From: a virus
Reading direction: 5' to 3' (one strand)
Length of the DNA: 48,822 nucleotides
Virus genome (UHGV): UHGV-0098481
Shown here: in pieces, positions 7,416 through 48,822 of the stretch
Layout: every line of letters begins with the position of its first letter
Numbering within the stretch: position 1 is the stretch's first letter
Position numbers and translations under genes: made by a program
Notes under the pieces: model-generated
Databases searched by the model: none
Seen by the model: the letters and a program-made list of their open reading frames with translations, nothing else
Told to the model about the DNA's origin: nothing

Positions 7416-8600
7416 TCAATTGACATCATTACCAATTCTTCCAATGCAATCAGCATACCACTGCATCATCTCCCTCCGCCCTTCCAGATACAAAGCATGG
7501 TTGTACGTCCCACGAATCGCATTCTTATCGACATGCGCAAGCTGGGTTTCAATCCATGCCGTATTGAACCCTTCCTCGTGCAAAATCGTACTCATCGTGT
7601 GACGGAAACCATGCCCCGTTACCTTCCCCGTATACCCAATCCGTTTGAATACCTGATTCATACTCGCTTCACTCATCGTCTTGCGGGGATCATTTCGCCC
7701 TGGGAATACCAGTGGATATTGCCCAGATATCACCTTGAGTTGTTGTACGATTTCCAGCGCTTGGGTAGATAGGGGGACAAGGTGAGGCCGTTTCATCTTC
7801 ATACGCTCTGCAGGTATTTCCCACACTGCTTTTTCAAGATCAAACTCACTCCAGAAAGCACCTCGTAGCTCGCCAGTACGAACTCCTGTAAGGATCAGCA
7901 GACGAGCGGCAAGAACAACTAACGGGCTTCCTGTGTAGCCTGCGAGAGCTTTAAAGAAGTCTGGTAACTCCTCAACAGTAAGGAAGGGATAATGCTTCGA
8001 TTCATGCCCTGACATTGCGCTGGTTAGATCCGCTGCAGGATTGTATTCCGCACGACCGGTAACGATGGCGTAACGAAAGACTTCACTGCAACGCTGGCGA
8101 ACCTTCTTGGCCTTCTCTGTCGCGCCACGGCTTTCCATTCGACGTAGCACATTCAGCAGAACCAAAGGCTTGATGTCATTCACCGGCAGTTGGCCAATAT
8201 AAGGGAAAATATCTTTATTGAAGGCTTCGATAATGTCGGAGGCATAACCTTCTGACCACCGGCTCACCTTCGTTCCGTGCCATTCAAGTGCCACAGCCTG
8301 AAACGTATTATTGAGCTGCACATCGCGAACCAACTTTTCTTCTTTCTTGGCAAACGATGGGTCGATACCTTCGGCCAGCTTTTTCTTGGCTTCATCACGC
8401 AGTGCCCTCGCTTGTGCAAGGGACACTGCCGGATAGACACCAAAAGCCATACGTTTCTCTTTTCCATTGAAGCGATATTTCATCCGCCAGTATCGAGAAC
8501 CAGAAGGAACAACTTCAAGATACAAGCCTGCACCATCTGCTAGCTTGTAGGCTTTCTCTCTGGGTTTAGCAGCATCTACCTGTCGAGCATTAAGCTTCAT
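7416..8600 (-). CDS. int: Tyrosine integrase, P4/CP4-type
   Basis: ORF 7416-8639, start taken at MKLNARQVDAAKP with AGGGAG upstream; C-terminal catalytic region with R...HGFRHT...Y pattern; immediately downstream of the tRNA 3' fragment on the same strand. Confidence 0.85.
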   Translation of the reverse strand: MKLNARQVDAAKPREKAYKLADGAGLYLEVVPSGSRYWRMKYRFNGKEKRMAFGVYPAVSLAQARALRDEAKKKLAEGIDPSFAKKEEKLVRDVQLNNTFQAVALEWHGTKVSRWSEGYASDIIEAFNKDIFPYIGQLPVNDIKPLVLLNVLRRMESRGATEKAKKVRQRCSEVFRYAIVTGRAEYNPAADLTSAMSGHESKHYPFLTVEELPDFFKALAGYTGSPLVVLAARLLILTGVRTGELRGAFWSEFDLEKAVWEIPAERMKMKRPHLVPLSTQALEIVQQLKVISGQYPLVFPGRNDPRKTMSEASMNQVFKRIGYTGKVTGHGFRHTMSTILHEEGFNTAWIETQLAHVDKNAIRGTYNHALYLEGRREMMQWYADCIGRIGNDVN

Positions 8601-8764
8601 TGGGGGCATCTCCCTGGACCGAACACAGAATGCCCCCACTTATGCCCCCAACTGCGACTTGATTTCGGTTGAGTCCAGTTGATAACAGGAGATAAGATAC
8701 GGGCCAGAAACCGCAGTATACGGGCTTTTAGTTGATTTCGGTAGACTTGGGAAGAGTTTGAAAT

Positions 8765-8810
8765 GGTGCCGATAATAGGAGTCGAACCTACGACCTTCGC
8801 ATTACGAATC
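8765..8810 (-). repeat. 46-nt 3' fragment of tRNA-Thr (anticodon loop CGT, T-arm GGTTCGA, CCA end); attachment-site core
   Basis: Reverse complement reads ATTCGTAATGCGAAGGTCGTAGGTTCGACTCCTATTATCGGCACCA; sequence 5' of this (8811 onward) does not continue a tRNA, so it is a partial att copy and not a gene. Confidence 0.8.
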
Positions 8811-9094
8811 TGTAGCACCAATCATAACTATCTGTTTTAGCAAGCATTAACCGCATTCACTAAGCTATAGTTGATGGCACAAACAGAAAGCTGATGCATG
8901 ATGTTGTCATGTGTATGTCACAAATACGGCACAACGATCTTCAAACATGTAGCCACACATCCACAGAAGAGCACAACGCCTTGCAATCAAGTGCAAAGCT
9001 TTGTGTGCATCAGTTTTGTCTCATAGGTAATGAGGCTTTAACTGCGATGCAGTAATACATACTAAAATTTACTTAAAATTCATAAATACACCAG

Positions 9095-9124
9095 ATAAAA
9101 ACAATCCCGCATTTTTTATGCGGG
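9095..9124 (-). terminator. Rho-independent terminator downstream of tailspike
   Basis: cccgcat / atgcggg stem with T-rich tract following on the minus strand. Confidence 0.6.
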
Positions 9125-9144
9125 ATATACTGCATTTATTGCAA

Positions 9145-11850
9145 CTACATTGCCATTAATATAAACATAGCCAATTCGTCATAACGAATTCCGTAGCGTC
9201 CTCCTGCTTTTTTTACAAGAATCATATCTCCTGTTTTATATTGAGAATAAATTTTCTCACCTGTATCAGGATCTGTGCTCTCTTCAGTTATCACCTCTTC
9301 ATCCCATACGTCAGGCCATTCATCGTAACACCAAAAAGCATATTTCTCAGGGTTTAAACCATGCTTTCTAAGAATATCCCCTACGGTTTGAGCGCCAACG
9401 CCAAAATGATACCTGGACGACTCAATTCCTTTGTGATTAATTGAGTCATTAAATTTAAATTTATAGATGACTGACTTTATTTCAATAGCGGCATCACGCT
9501 CTGCATTAAGAATATCATATCTTGTTTTAAGAGTTTCATCTGATGTATTGATTGACCCGGTTCCTGCATAAATAACAGAGCATCTGTTTGATGGCTGTCC
9601 AATAGCTTTAACATTATCATCAACAGGAGCTATTTTATTAGCATCTGCCAACCACCAGTCTGTTCCATCAGCGTGACCGATTCTTACTCTTATCCCACTT
9701 CTAATATTTAAACTTCCAGTATTACTCTGTAAATTACAATCTCCTGACGTTGGTCCAAGCAGTACAGTTTTACCAACACCACATACTACTCTGGCATTTC
9801 CTTTTTGTGATACGAGTCTTGACTCACCTCCTGACTGCTCAGGAAGAGATTTATGGTCTATAAATGCATCGCGGGGGTTAAATACACCGTCTCCAGAATT
9901 ATATCTTCCTCCTGTATAGTTGTTAAATACAGGACCCCAGTCAACGCCATTGCCTTCAGAGCACCCGACCATTCTAAGCACTCGAGTATTCCCTGCTGCA
10001 TATGGTAATGAGCTTGTTGATTGCCGGGAAGCTATCATACGTGCTCCATAACCAATAGCATTACCACCATTTATAGTTACATATGCTTGCTGGCTTTCGA
10101 AATATGTACTGTAAAAGTTCATATTTCCACAGTCATGTAGATGAATAAGAACATCATCCCATCCCTGAATGGTTCCTGCATGTACCTGTACACCGCGAAC
10201 TGGTTCCCCTGAAACCTCCATACACTCTGATGGTCGGCTGAATGGTTGAGACAGGTATTGCGATGTGGCAAGCAGATGTGTGTGGTGATACAGGCTGGTA
10301 ATGTAGCAATCGAAAAATTGCGTTCCCGCCATACCAAAGTTATCTATGTCATTTCGCCGTATAGTAGAACCTACTGTTGCCTCAGAAGCGTTAGACACTC
10401 CAGTAAATACTAACTTATCACCGGATACGGATAATCCTGAATAAGTGAAATTCCTGCCTCCAGATCTTAAAACCCCGGACGTTTCGAAGGTGTGGCTTGC
10501 TGACCATGGGATTTCGATAGTGCTGGACGTTACCGCTGTAATTCGGAATACATCATGGGCGCGGATCGAAACACCCTTGAATCCCTGGAATCTACAGTGA
10601 TAATAGTTTTCATCCTCGCCCTGAGCAGCCAGCGTGTCAGATACAGGAATGTTCGTTTTTAAAAGTGCCGTCTTGCGCCAGTATCCAACCACCTGCAAAT
10701 TGCGGTATTCATTGCCAAAAGACGCACGTGACCAAATACCTACATCCCACTCATCGCCAAGACCGGTATTTGCAATGTCTTTATAACCATCCAGACCATT
10801 GAAATATGGAACAATACGAAAGTTCTCAAGGCGAACACATCCTGTCTCAGGCATCAATATTGCGGCAGAGAATGGTTTAAGCGTGGCTCTTGTAGTCCCA
10901 TTAGCATCACCGTTAGTAAAATCCAATAAATCATATGATGACGCAGGTGCCGTTGTTGTATACGGGTCTTCGGAAGATGGATTAGAAACCACACCACCAC
11001 TAACATCCATATTAGAAACACAATCTACAGTATATTTTTTATTTCCTACCCCGTACATCAGGAATGTGGTCCCTGTGGTAATATCAGGAGCAAATGTTGC
11101 AGTATATCCTGAGACCCATTTGCCCACACCAAGACAAATTATCCCACCACCAGAAACAGGTGTTAACGTATCCGTTATTACATACGCATTATCAGTACCA
11201 TAAATAACCTTTCCTGTGTTAAGGGCAGCTTGCCACGCGGCCCAGTCTATTGACTGAGATAATGAGTCAACAAAAGGATATAAGGATTTTGCTTCAGAAA
11301 TTGAAGAAAACCACTCAGATAATGGATGATATTTCCCATCCCCAATTGCTCCAAATTGTTTTACATTTAAGAAAAGAGCATTGTTTTCATGCTGAGTTAT
11401 AGTTACAGCCCCGGTAAATGGCTGCCTTACCCCAATTAATGCATCACCTTTTGAATCATCATTAATGTATGCTCCTGATTGAGATAACTGCTCTTTGAAG
11501 TCTGGGCCAAACTGATCTGGATCGTATTTTAATACATTTGGAAAATAGAACTGCTTCGCACCATACGCATCATAAACAGCCATAGAATGGCCTTGCACAG
11601 TTACGAATTTGGCAATCTGTCCGTTATATACCGGATAACCAGCAGCGTTAATGATGATTGGTTGAGAAACAGGAACGTGAGAACCGTCTTCGTTCTCTAC
11701 ATAAACCTGAATCCGGTTTTCTGGATTTACCGGGTCAGCGTCAATTTTACCGATATAAATTTTTCCATTGGCAACCGCTTTAAAAGAACGCGCCATAGTG
11801 AAGAGTTGCGAAGGCATACTCACTACAACATTGGCTGTAATGTCTGTCAT
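9145..11850 (-). CDS. Tailspike protein: P22-like N-terminal head-binding domain, divergent receptor-binding body, C-terminal chaperone-like domain
   Basis: N-terminus [11 protein letters not shown]...[12 protein letters not shown]...VQGHSMA...LKYDPDQ closely matches the P22 gp9 head-binding domain; remainder unlike P22; C-terminal ...[11 protein letters not shown]... resembles auto-cleaving intramolecular chaperone domains. Confidence 0.85.
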
Positions 11851-21121: not shown

Positions 21122-21290
21122 CTTCTTCCGCCTTAGCCACTTTTTGCTTCGTTGCGGTTTCTTCAGGAGTTTTTACCCAACCTTTTTTCAGGTGAGATTT
21201 AACTTCTTCGTCATCAACAATGATGTAATCGACAGCAAACTGACCACAGGTGATCATGTTGCCCGGCTTATAGAGCATTGTTCGTGCCAT
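21102..21290 (-). CDS. Small hypothetical protein between coat and gp4
   Basis: ORF 21102-21329, start chosen at MARTM with GGGAGA upstream. Confidence 0.4.
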   Translation of the reverse strand: MARTMLYKPGNMITCGQFAVDYIIVDDEEVKSHLKKGWVKTPEETATKQKVAKAEEDGENEG

Positions 21291-21331: not shown

Positions 21332-22591
21332 TTACTGCCCGGCAATAACGATGCCCGTATATTCAGGAACAAGTACAGAGCAGCCGTACAGAGTGGTGAA
21401 ACGCGCAGTGGTTACGCCTTTGATGTGGTCGAAGGCGTAAGACATGATCAGCGTAGCGCCCTGCTCGGTGGTTGCCGTCATTACCTGTGGACCCTGACCA
21501 GTCGGGAACGCCAGTTTGCCGTACATCAGCTCAACAGAACCATCAGCCCAGAACAGGTTAGCAGGTGCTGCGTTCTTGTTGAGAATGGTGATTGCTGCAG
21601 TTTCTGCCGGCTTGGCATCGACGTTTGCATATGGACGGCTCGCAACATCGGCATTTCCAACAGGGAGAATCTTTGGAGAGATTGTTACGGTGGTTCCTGC
21701 TGTGTCTACTGCCAGAACGCGGAATACCTGCGGCTGCCCGGTGGTATCTTTGGTGATCTGGTGTACGGAATTCACACCTGCGATGGTAAACGCATCGCCA
21801 ACCTGCAAGCCTTTAGCAGATACCGTAATGGTCCCCTGTCGGTTATCAACAGGCATGCCATTTGAATCTTTCGCTTCAACCTTGTGTTCAGGTTGATTTG
21901 ATACTGTCAAGGTTTCAGTGCTTCCTGCCGGTAATCGACCGGAAATATCGGTCTTGTAGCTATCAAAGGAAGCAACCGGAGGGATCTGCGCTTTTTCGTA
22001 TGCTGTCAGGGTTGCGCCCTGAGCGTAGGCACGGTGACCAAGCTCGCCAGCAAGGTCTTTGTAGTTGAATGGGTCCCAGAAAGAGCGACGGTTGATACCC
22101 TGAGGTACACCAATCGCCGTCATGGTGGCATCAATATCTGCCGCACCATTCCACAAGGCAAGGCCCCGTGAGCCATTTTCTGAGGCAGGAATTGCGACCA
22201 CGTTAGTAGCACGCTGCGTAACCATGGAAATCAGGTCAGAGTCAATCTGTGCAGCAAGGCGCATACCTGCAGCGCGACCAGCTTCAGTTTTATGTTCCGG
22301 GTCACGCATTTCACGCGCATCCAGAGTGTACAGTATGTTTTTCGGCTCCTTGAACACAGAAGGAACAAGGCGCTGAACCAGTGCTGTTGGCGTTTTGCCG
22401 CTGAGGTCTAGGCCTTCCTCAATGTTCATGTGGTAATGCTGCGGACGATACAGAACATCACCTGCTCGCTGCATTGCTGTATCACCGGGACGGAATTTTT
22501 TAGCGTTACGGGAAACTACGCAGGCGGCCTCAAAGCCTTCAACGTAGTTTTCGAACATGATTTCAAGGTCTTTTGCTAATTGGTTAGTCAT
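21332..22591 (-). CDS. Major coat protein (P22/Sf6-like)
   Basis: 419 aa, synteny after scaffold; HK97-fold coat of P22-like phages by position and size. Confidence 0.85.
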   Translation of the reverse strand: MTNQLAKDLEIMFENYVEGFEAACVVSRNAKKFRPGDTAMQRAGDVLYRPQHYHMNIEEGLDLSGKTPTALVQRLVPSVFKEPKNILYTLDAREMRDPEHKTEAGRAAGMRLAAQIDSDLISMVTQRATNVVAIPASENGSRGLALWNGAADIDATMTAIGVPQGINRRSFWDPFNYKDLAGELGHRAYAQGATLTAYEKAQIPPVASFDSYKTDISGRLPAGSTETLTVSNQPEHKVEAKDSNGMPVDNRQGTITVSAKGLQVGDAFTIAGVNSVHQITKDTTGQPQVFRVLAVDTAGTTVTISPKILPVGNADVASRPYANVDAKPAETAAITILNKNAAPANLFWADGSVELMYGKLAFPTGQGPQVMTATTEQGATLIMSYAFDHIKGVTTARFTTLYGCSVLVPEYTGIVIAGQ

Positions 22592-47437: not shown

Positions 47438-47785
47438 GTGGAAGAAGAAATCTTCACTCGTGAAGAGGCAGCATCGTATCTGAAGGTAGACAAAGGCACT
47501 ATCACGCAGTGGATACGAAGTGGACGACTTCAGGCCGCAAAGATAAATCCAGATAAACCTAAAAGCCCATATCGCATTTGCAAGTCAGACTGCATTGCGG
47601 CGCTTAAGTCTGTAAGACACAATAGCGCGGTGAATGCGGTTGATGTGCAGGAGGTTAAAGCATGTCAATCAAACTACGCGGTGGCACGTGGCACTGTGAT
47701 TTCGTCGCGCCAGATGGATCAAGAGTTAGACGCTCTCTTGAAACATCGGACAAAAGGCAAGCGCAAGAACTTCACGATCGTCTGA
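47438..47785 (+). CDS. xis: Excisionase (HTH, AlpA/Xis family)
   Basis: 115 aa; ...FTREEAASYLKVDKGTITQWIRSGRL... HTH; 3' end overlaps int start. Confidence 0.7.
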   Translation: MEEEIFTREEAASYLKVDKGTITQWIRSGRLQAAKINPDKPKSPYRICKSDCIAALKSVRHNSAVNAVDVQEVKACQSNYAVARGTVISSRQMDQELDALLKHRTKGKRKNFTIV

Positions 47786-48822
47786 AAGCAGAAGCGTGGA
47801 GAGTAAAAAATCTCGGGGAATCACCGAAAAAGCTATTCAAGGAAGCCTGCATACGGTGGCTGCGTGATAAATCGGATAAGAAGTCCATTGATGATGACAA
47901 GAGCATTATATCGTTCTGGATGTTGCACTTCAGAGAAACCATTCTCTCTGACATAACAACAGAAAAAATAATGGAGGCGGTAGACGGGATGGAAAACCGC
48001 CGCCATCGCCTGAACTGGGAGATGAGCCGGGACAGGTGTTTGCGGCTTGGCAAGCCAGTGCCGGAGTATAAACCAAAGCTGGCAAGCAAAGGAACGAAGA
48101 CGCGGCATCTGGCAATACTTCGCGCTATTCTCAATATGGCTGTTGAATGGGGATGGCTTGACAGGGCGCCCAAAATATCAACACCACGCGTTAAGAATGG
48201 ACGAATCAGATGGCTTACAGAGGAGGAATCGAAGCGCCTGTTTGCAGAAATTGCTCCTCATTTCTTCCCTGTGGTCATGTTTGCAATCACGACAGGCCTT
48301 CGCCGTTCCAACGTTACAGACCTTGAGTGGTCACAGGTCGATCTGGATAAGAAAATGGCATGGATGCACCCTGATGAAACAAAAGCTGGCAATGCGATCG
48401 GAGTTCCTCTTAACGAAACCGCATGCCAGATATTAAGAAAACAGCAGGGTCTCCATAAGAGATGGGTGTTTGTCCACACCAAACCTGCCTACCGAAGCGA
48501 CGGAACAAAAACAGCAGCGGTAAGGAAGATGAGAACCGACAGCAACAAGGCATGGAAGGGAGCGTTAAAGCGGGCAGGCATTAGCAACTTCCGCTTCCAT
48601 GACCTGAGGCATACCTGGGCAAGCTGGCTGGTTCAGTCCGGTGTCTCTCTTCTTGCACTTAAAGAGATGGGAGGATGGGAAACTCTCGAAATGGTTCAAA
48701 GATACGCTCACCTTTCAGCCGGGCATCTCACCGAGCACGCGAGCAAAATCGATGCGATTATAAGTCGCAATGGCACAAATACGGCACAAGAGGAGAACGT
48801 GGTTTACTTAAATATGAGGTAA
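47662..48822 (+). CDS. int: Tyrosine integrase, P22/lambdoid family
   Basis: 386 aa; aligns with P22 Int as remembered (…KDKRQAQELHDRLKAEAWRV…RFHDLRHTWASWLVQSGV…YAHL); stop codon is the last 3 nt of the window. Confidence 0.9.
   Translation: MSIKLRGGTWHCDFVAPDGSRVRRSLETSDKRQAQELHDRLKAEAWRVKNLGESPKKLFKEACIRWLRDKSDKKSIDDDKSIISFWMLHFRETILSDITTEKIMEAVDGMENRRHRLNWEMSRDRCLRLGKPVPEYKPKLASKGTKTRHLAILRAILNMAVEWGWLDRAPKISTPRVKNGRIRWLTEEESKRLFAEIAPHFFPVVMFAITTGLRRSNVTDLEWSQVDLDKKMAWMHPDETKAGNAIGVPLNETACQILRKQQGLHKRWVFVHTKPAYRSDGTKTAAVRKMRTDSNKAWKGALKRAGISNFRFHDLRHTWASWLVQSGVSLLALKEMGGWETLEMVQRYAHLSAGHLTEHASKIDAIISRNGTNTAQEENVVYLNMR

Follow-up and report, generated by a model that had tools for sequence, protein, structure and literature searches.

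A predicted attP map for an SfX-type thrW integrase, with two of five candidate arm-type sites inside the int reading frame

Introduction

Phage lambda encodes a heterobivalent tyrosine integrase with five arm-type sites (P1, P2 and P'1-P'3) spread over the two arms of its attachment site, and the lambda int stop codon lies just outside the P' sites. For P22, the arm-type sites are presumably five as well, split three and two; the TGTCCCA repeats of P22 are what we take to be these published sites, judging from the five-site map and from the pattern in the sequence. The Int arm-type, IHF, and Xis sites of P22 attP are reportedly treated in work by Smith-Mungo, Chan and Landy in 1994, Cho et al. 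in 1999, and Mattis et al. in 2008. P22 Int is counted in bioRxiv 10.1101/2023.11.06.565760 among the few fully characterised heterobivalent integrase systems, and Table 1 of PMC4111918 puts its attP at ~260 bp. The attP architecture of the lambda type is summarised in PMC2951348, which also presents the KplE1 (CPS-53)/HK620/Sf6 module (IntS, TorI), in which a tRNA-targeting integrase has arm-type sites that overlap its own gene region.

The attachment-site design of lambda and P22 is already well known, and what is new at the locus described here is another recognition word. In the literature searched, we found no experimental mapping of arm sites for integrases of the SfX type, and the records of phage HK542 and other phages of this type annotate the core alone ("attP; similar to thrW"). 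Here we provide a sequence-level attP map for an SfX-type thrW integrase, which places five predicted arm sites and a probable IHF site around the core.

Results and discussion

Prophage and integrase

The stretch analysed (UHGV virus genome UHGV-0098481, 48,822 nt, hereafter the window) carries a P22-like prophage in thrW. Its junction is formed by a copy of the 46-nt core that is identical to the one given for SfI, SfII, SfV, SfX, and P22 in PMC3636060. A tRNA scan found no intact tRNA in the window, so this core copy marks a prophage junction. To its right lies a P22-type tailspike gene, in whose product a head-binding domain was detected, and at the other end of the prophage xis precedes int, whose stop codon supplies the last base of the window (Table 1).

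The int product matches Pfam PF00589 (E = 9e-35, residues 184-353) and retains the catalytic-tyrosine context RYAHL; PF00589 was the only match in the Pfam search of Int, and no arm-binding domain was flagged. The protein is 99% identical to the integrases of HK542, HK446, HK75, mEp213, mEpX2, and ECP1, 96% identical to that of SfX, and about 55% identical to those of P22 and SfII, with 60% identity to P22 Int over its first 80 amino acids. The preliminary description of this DNA had placed the locus among P22-like prophages. That is correct for the prophage, but its integrase is of the SfX type. The Xis protein is 42% identical to P22 Xis (E = 4e-31), and its counterpart in HK542 is annotated as an excisionase; it is presumed to be the directionality factor, which would act on the P arm for excision.

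Table 1. Attachment-site features and adjoining genes in the window. Arm-type sites are predictions.
Feature	Position	Strand	Remarks
P4-type integrase gene, 407 aa, with upstream repeats	7416-8650	-	left of thrW core copy
Att core copy, 46 nt of thrW (tRNA-Thr) 3' part	8764..8809	-	attR (lambda nomenclature), int-distal junction
P arm (phage DNA)	begins 8810
Predicted P-arm arm-type site, single, ATGGCACAAA	8874..8883	+	+65 from core edge
Predicted P-arm arm-type site, tandem member 1, ATGTCACAAAT	8915..8925	+	G-to-T variant; +106 from core edge
Predicted P-arm arm-type site, tandem member 2, ACGGCACAAC	8926..8935	+	11-bp step; +117
Tailspike gene	9145-11850	-	P22-type; right of junction
xis, excisionase, 115 aa, HTH_17	47438..47785	+	Pfam PF12728
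int, SfX-type tyrosine integrase, 386 aa	47662..48822	+	3' end belongs to attP
Predicted P'-arm arm-type site 1, ATGGCACAAAT	48770..48780	+	int codons 370-373
Predicted P'-arm arm-type site 2, ACGGCACAAG	48781..48790	+	int codons 374-376; 11-bp step
int stop codon, in-window end of IHF consensus AATCAATAAGTTA	48820..48822	-	remaining 10 nt past window end

Five copies of an extended word

The preliminary description had drawn attention to three related strings near the core copy and in the end of int. Reading the window directly, we found all three where they had been placed: ATGGCACAAA at 8874-8883, CACAAATACGGCACAA at 8919-8934, and AATGGCACAAATACGGCACAAG at 48769-48790, the last inside int and 11-17 codons ahead of the stop. 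The similarity proved longer than had been claimed. The 20-mers ATGTCACAAATACGGCACAA (8915-8934) and ATGGCACAAATACGGCACAA (48770-48789) are identical at 19 of 20 positions, a match without equivalent in 100 shuffles of the window. Each 20-mer consists of two 11-nt units in tandem, and a fifth unit stands isolated at 8874. The earlier view that repeats occupy both arms was therefore right, but the number of units, put at three or four, is five in a 2 + 1 + 2 arrangement. The search pattern suggested at the time, GGCACAA(A/T)AC, runs one base out of register with the actual GGCACAAATAC and has no true copies.

We then considered how often the word occurs in the window as a whole. The 7-mer GGCACAA is not enriched (eight copies against 7.6 expected), although half of its copies sit in the two att arms. 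Extending the word to AYGGCACAA leaves four copies where 1.18 are expected, and these occur in the att arms exclusively. With the alternative base allowed at one position, AYGKCACAA is found five times in 48.8 kb (1.79 expected), always on the + strand, and each copy lies either no more than 126 bp from the core copy or in the int tail, as a single unit and a tandem pair on the former side and a second tandem pair within int on the latter. Searches with this 9-mer that allowed one mismatch returned mostly noise. The signal thus resides in the extended word and its placement, and overall frequency contributes nothing to it. An even frequency of the motif across the genome had been named beforehand as a reason to abandon the interpretation; the bare 7-mer is indeed at its expected level, but all five full units are on the att arms, and the interpretation stands.

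The units are 47-67 bp from the int-side edge of the core in the int tail and 65-126 bp from the opposite edge on the P arm. The repeated word is distinct from the core, and on either arm it stays within about 150 bp of the crossover region. Taken alone, the window frequency of GGCACAA could be read as the chance recurrence of a short A/C-rich word. The shuffles never reproduced the 20-mer match, however, and the five 9-mers share a single orientation as well as their confinement to the att arms. The units are moreover conserved in dozens of independent contigs. Shuffles, P-arm conservation, and the synonymous-codon test described below together exclude chance, whose probability we put at practically nil.

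Two arms of one attachment site

The two window regions lie about 40 kb apart, and their relationship becomes apparent in genomes where the junctions can be read through. E. coli 23CRST013 has int and arm segments 100% identical to those of the window; past its int stop come 14 bp, the core as part of an intact thrW, and then proA. A gap of 14 bp likewise separates the int stop from the core in phage HK542, where the core leads straight into the other arm and none of the five units is missing. Int tail, 14-bp spacer, core, and tailspike-side arm are thus one contiguous segment in free-phage genomes like that of HK542. It follows that the two window regions are the two arms of one attP, with a predicted span of ~240 bp, parted by integration. 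It also bears out the earlier suggestion that attP overlaps the 3' end of int.

Between the last tail site and the core, an IHF consensus spans the int stop codon. The complete motif, WATCAANNNNTTR, is a perfect match at positions 2321-2333 of retrieved locus L006, where it is the sole match in 3.8 kb (0.17 expected), and P22 and SfII carry the same motif in the same place. We regard it as a probable IHF site. Within the window itself, a search with the IHF consensus gave three matches, none of them on the P arm.

Conservation within the SfX type

Absence of the motif from close relatives with the same integrase would have counted against arm-type sites. The units were found in every same-integrase phage or prophage retrieved, namely HK542, HK446, HK75, mEp213, mEpX2, ECP1, SfX, and IMG/VR contigs, and were absent from none. 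To follow the P arm across a larger set, we used a profile anchored on the first 15 nt of the arm, which is independent of the sites; 46 IMG/VR matches yielded 45 usable and 35 unique arms. Only two of 31 site columns are variable among the 35 unique arms, compared with 48 of 114 columns in the surrounding arm (Fisher p = 7e-5, an approximate value because the sequences are phylogenetically related). The first tandem member is unchanged throughout (35/35). The single site and the second tandem member are each identical in 34 arms, and the only site variants in the set are ATGACACAAA, the lone variant of the single site, and ATTCGGCACAA.

The int tail offers a separate view, as here the predicted sites are also coding sequence. 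Int genes with 84-93% amino-acid identity were retrieved at thrW in Enterobacter, Kluyvera, Pseudescherichia, Pectobacterium, Pseudocitrobacter, Leclercia, and Salmonella diarizonae. The scan covered one genome per species and relied on peptide patterns lying outside the tail. Across 15 int genes, synonymous codons other than the majority codon make up a fraction of 0.033 at the seven site codons, as against 0.343 at the remaining 51 degenerate codons among the last 61 (Mann-Whitney p = 1e-4, again approximate given the relatedness of the sequences). The site codons of these 15 sequences read N G/V T N T/M A Q. Where the tail does change, unit position 4 alternates between G and T and position 2 between C and T; the same alternatives are found among the five units of this phage, where they define the consensus AYGKCACAA. 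The GTCACAA variant of the first tandem P-arm site also recurs in diverged int genes, at their int-tail site. Because synonymous positions are frozen in the site codons, selection acts on the int tail at the DNA level, in addition to the coding constraint.

Comparison across integrase types

Nine further phages supplied an int tail, a core, and an opposite arm for comparison. Counted from the end of the stop codon, P22, SfII, HK639, RAH1, and Eho59 carry a tandem pair with an 11-bp step at -52/-41, and Edno5 carries one 6 nt nearer the stop; in the window, the first P'-arm site, at -52 from the last base of the stop, stands where P22, HK639, and Eho59 have their first tail unit. In every type compared, the word in the int tail recurs on the other arm, and the word is set by the type of integrase: YGTCCCA in P22 and L (for example TGTCCCA in P22), which share the 2 + 1 + 2 layout; GTCCCA or GTCTCA in SfII; AYGACACA in HK639 and BHUENT6; CGACACA in Klebsiella RAH1; CGACACAA in Edwardsiella Edno5; and TGACAC in Erwinia Eho59. 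Several of these phages have a tRNA core other than that of thrW. The P22 word clusters in its own genome, with five of 11 matches to YGTCCCA lying in the 240-bp attP stretch; in NC_002371 the TGTCCCA repeats are at 21168-21185, 21233-21239, and 21387-21404. When tail words of the CACAA group were sought in P22-type arms, and the reverse, no match was obtained at up to one mismatch. In the more distant Burkholderia phage AP3, CTGTAATTTCACTG stands just after the int stop and again on the other arm.

The absence of the P22 word YGTCCCA, together with the Int identity of about 55%, places the integrase encoded here in a sister specificity group, the SfX type, outside the P22 group. The N-terminal 80 residues of the compared integrases are 59-69% identical, and differences in the region of residues 8-18 parallel the arm-word groups across types. 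From this parallel we infer that residues 8-18 may be linked to word specificity.

A layout that is kept while the word changes on both arms at once, combined with frozen synonymous positions, is the behaviour expected of arm-type sites. We consider it highly probable that an SfX-type heterobivalent tyrosine integrase binds the five AYGKCACAA units as its arm-type sites. The preliminary description had offered this identification as a candidate, and clustering, presence in relatives, covarying words, and the frozen synonymous positions all favour it.

Two other origins for the units were weighed against these comparisons. If the excisionase rather than Int were the binder, the units would be Xis (RDF) sites. 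A xis gene is present, and RDF sites are described in bioRxiv 10.1101/784983 as usually being short direct repeats ~one helical turn apart, which the 11-bp step of the tandem pairs resembles. RDF sites are normally confined to one arm, however, whereas the units here are on both in the 2 + 1 + 2 arrangement, and the word varies with the N-terminal region of Int across types. HK639, RAH1, and Edno5 also contain inverted copies, which are typical of arm-type sites and unlike RDF filaments. We therefore judge binding by Xis to be very unlikely. The P-arm copies could instead be functionless remains of an int 3' end that was once duplicated, for example in an old illegitimate or tandem-prophage recombination, and retained only because they are young. 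The near identity of the two tandem pairs would fit such a history, as would relic-like material farther out on the P arm (8962-9024, see below). A duplication explains poorly why the similarity ends exactly at the unit borders and why the third P-arm unit stands isolated, and the same layout recurs with other words in integrase types that are 55-60% identical and use other tRNAs. Sites far less variable than the arm around them, and a tail with frozen synonymous positions, also argue against it. A relic is scarcely credible on these grounds, and we retain arm-type Int sites as the reading of the units.

Likeness to P22, lambda, and KplE1

The closest likeness is to P22 attP. Both have the same 46-nt thrW core, a 14-bp gap between int stop and core, and an IHF consensus across the int stop codon; in both, the tail tandem pair is at -52/-41 and the other arm bears a single site and a tandem pair. 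Measured from the core, P22 has its distal pair at +107/+118 and the window has it at +106/+117; attP is listed at ~260 bp for P22 and predicted at ~240 bp here. Int and Xis are homologous in the two phages, at the identities given above (55% and 42%). The systems differ in their words, YGTCCCA in P22 and AYGKCACAA here, and in the position of the single P-arm site, which is at +53 in P22 and at +65, 12 bp farther from the core, in the window. They also differ in the spacer between the single and tandem sites: in P22 it measures 44 bp and includes three TGCAAA(G/C) repeats, whereas here it is 31 bp of unrelated sequence, and a TGCAA-repeat block lies distal to the sites instead of between them.

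The locus resembles lambda in the adjacent tandem sites of its int-proximal arm, spaced by ~one helical turn, and, if the roles that we assign here are correct, in IHF-assisted bending. In lambda the P' sites are outside int, whereas two of the sites predicted here are inside the int frame; the lambda core is without a tRNA gene, and its recognition word is another one. The att arm of KplE1 extends over the promoter and 5' end of int, resulting in autoregulation, while the arm here overlaps the 3' coding end of int. The words differ as well, since IntS sites share a TAAA motif and TorI sites are of a GTTCG type, both unlike AYGKCACAA.

Predicted assembly and the int tail

In the circular phage, the last about 53 nt of int, containing two tandem sites, serve as the P' arm. 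They are followed by the 14-bp spacer with the IHF consensus, by the 46-bp core identical to thrW, and by the first 126 nt on the tailspike side, whose single site and tandem pair constitute the P arm, for a predicted total of about 240 bp. The N-terminal domain of Int would bind the arm sites and its C-terminal domains the core, and IHF would bend the DNA; the resulting intasome would recombine with thrW. Once the phage has integrated, the P' sites remain with int beside the restored thrW, whereas the P sites come to lie about 40 kb away, beside the tailspike gene. Parting of the arms by integration is the reason that the units stand at two extremes of the window.

Site codons 370-376 encode NGTNTAQ here; the tail reads SVPNMSH in P22 and HDTNTTQ in HK639. 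The two units embedded in int dictate seven C-terminal tail residues and freeze their synonymous positions, a mildly unusual situation. With Int as the probable binder, this locus is a clean natural case of protein-binding sites that constrain synonymous codon positions; it involves no new mechanism. One could speculate further that this dual coding goes beyond an accident of packing, in that Int bound in its own 3' end, in attP or attL, feeds back on int expression, and that tail peptides reveal specificity classes. We consider this combined proposal rather unlikely. If it were correct, the feedback could take the form of, for example, a roadblock or an effect on 3'-end processing, with a purpose analogous to that of lambda sib or KplE1 autoregulation, and the tail peptides of Int would directly give away the specificity class of the arm sites throughout Enterobacterales.

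The module is common to podoviral P22-like prophages and to HK97/HK022-like siphoviruses (HK542, HK75, mEp213), with E. coli, Shigella, Enterobacter, Kluyvera, and Pectobacterium among its hosts. The map can serve the correct delimitation of prophage ends, the prediction of integrase cross-use among thrW phages, and the design of a minimal attP, in which the last ~55 nt of int must be included.

Neighbouring elements at thrW

A second integrase gene, of the P4 type and with Arm-DNA-bind_3, Phage_int_M, and Phage_integrase domains, is located to the left of the thrW core copy on the minus strand (Table 1). The P22-like prophage and another integrative element thus lie in tandem at thrW. The motif ATGCCCCCA has three exact copies, at 8601-8609 (inverted), 8630-8638, and 8642-8650, and none elsewhere in the window. 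As they fall at the 5' end of the P4-type int or upstream of it, they are candidate arm-type sites, with a KplE1-like overlap with the int promoter.

On the P arm, short repeats (AGTTGATG, AGCTGATG, and CATGATG) occur at 8867-8902, around and between the single and tandem sites; they correspond to repeat D2 in HK542. They are possible Xis sites, and in the P-arm set they are less conserved than the Int units. AGYTGATG repeats at 8867-8895 are the candidates for accessory-protein sites on this arm. Farther out, the segment 8962-9024, AGCACAACGCCTTGCAATCAAGTGCAAAGCTTTGTGTGCATCAGTTTTGTCTCA, was considered as a source of additional arm or Xis sites and rejected, as it is instead homologous to a part of the K-12 KplE1 element far from the KplE1 att site. 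That homologue follows directly after the intS stop in K-12 KplE1, upstream of gtrA (yfdG). The segment also has homologues in the P arms of P22 and of SfII, where it overlaps an annotated putative terminator. In both of these phages its T-rich end bears the distal tandem arm sites; in the window this end reads GTGCATCAGTTTTGTCTCA, which is SfII-like. Since the phage is without a gtr operon, the segment appears to be a remnant of either a P22/SfII-type arm or a gtr leader. Its potential to form an RNA hairpin is no better than that of shuffled sequences (z = -0.88), and a simple terminator scan of it made no call. A strong, terminator-like hairpin, ATCCCGCATAAAAAATGCGGGAT followed by a T-run, is present at 9104-9126, just downstream of the tailspike gene. 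The tailspike itself has a head-binding N-terminus of the P22 type, joined to a C-terminal chaperone domain of the endosialidase type (Peptidase_S74, End_tail_spike).

Other genomes show further arrangements at thrW. In E. coli 23CRST013, the distance from the end of int to the P arm is about 39.0 kb, compared with about 40.0 kb in the window, indicating that the two prophages differ by ~1 kb somewhere internal. In Shigella flexneri SFBU1023 (L153), a 3' fragment of an SfX-type int and the core are followed by a P arm of the SfII type (ttataagaatccgctt...), an arrangement that indicates tandem or hybrid prophages at thrW. Escherichia sp. ESNIH1 (L171) contains an int remnant in which TAG replaces the catalytic tyrosine codon, and both tail sites are kept.
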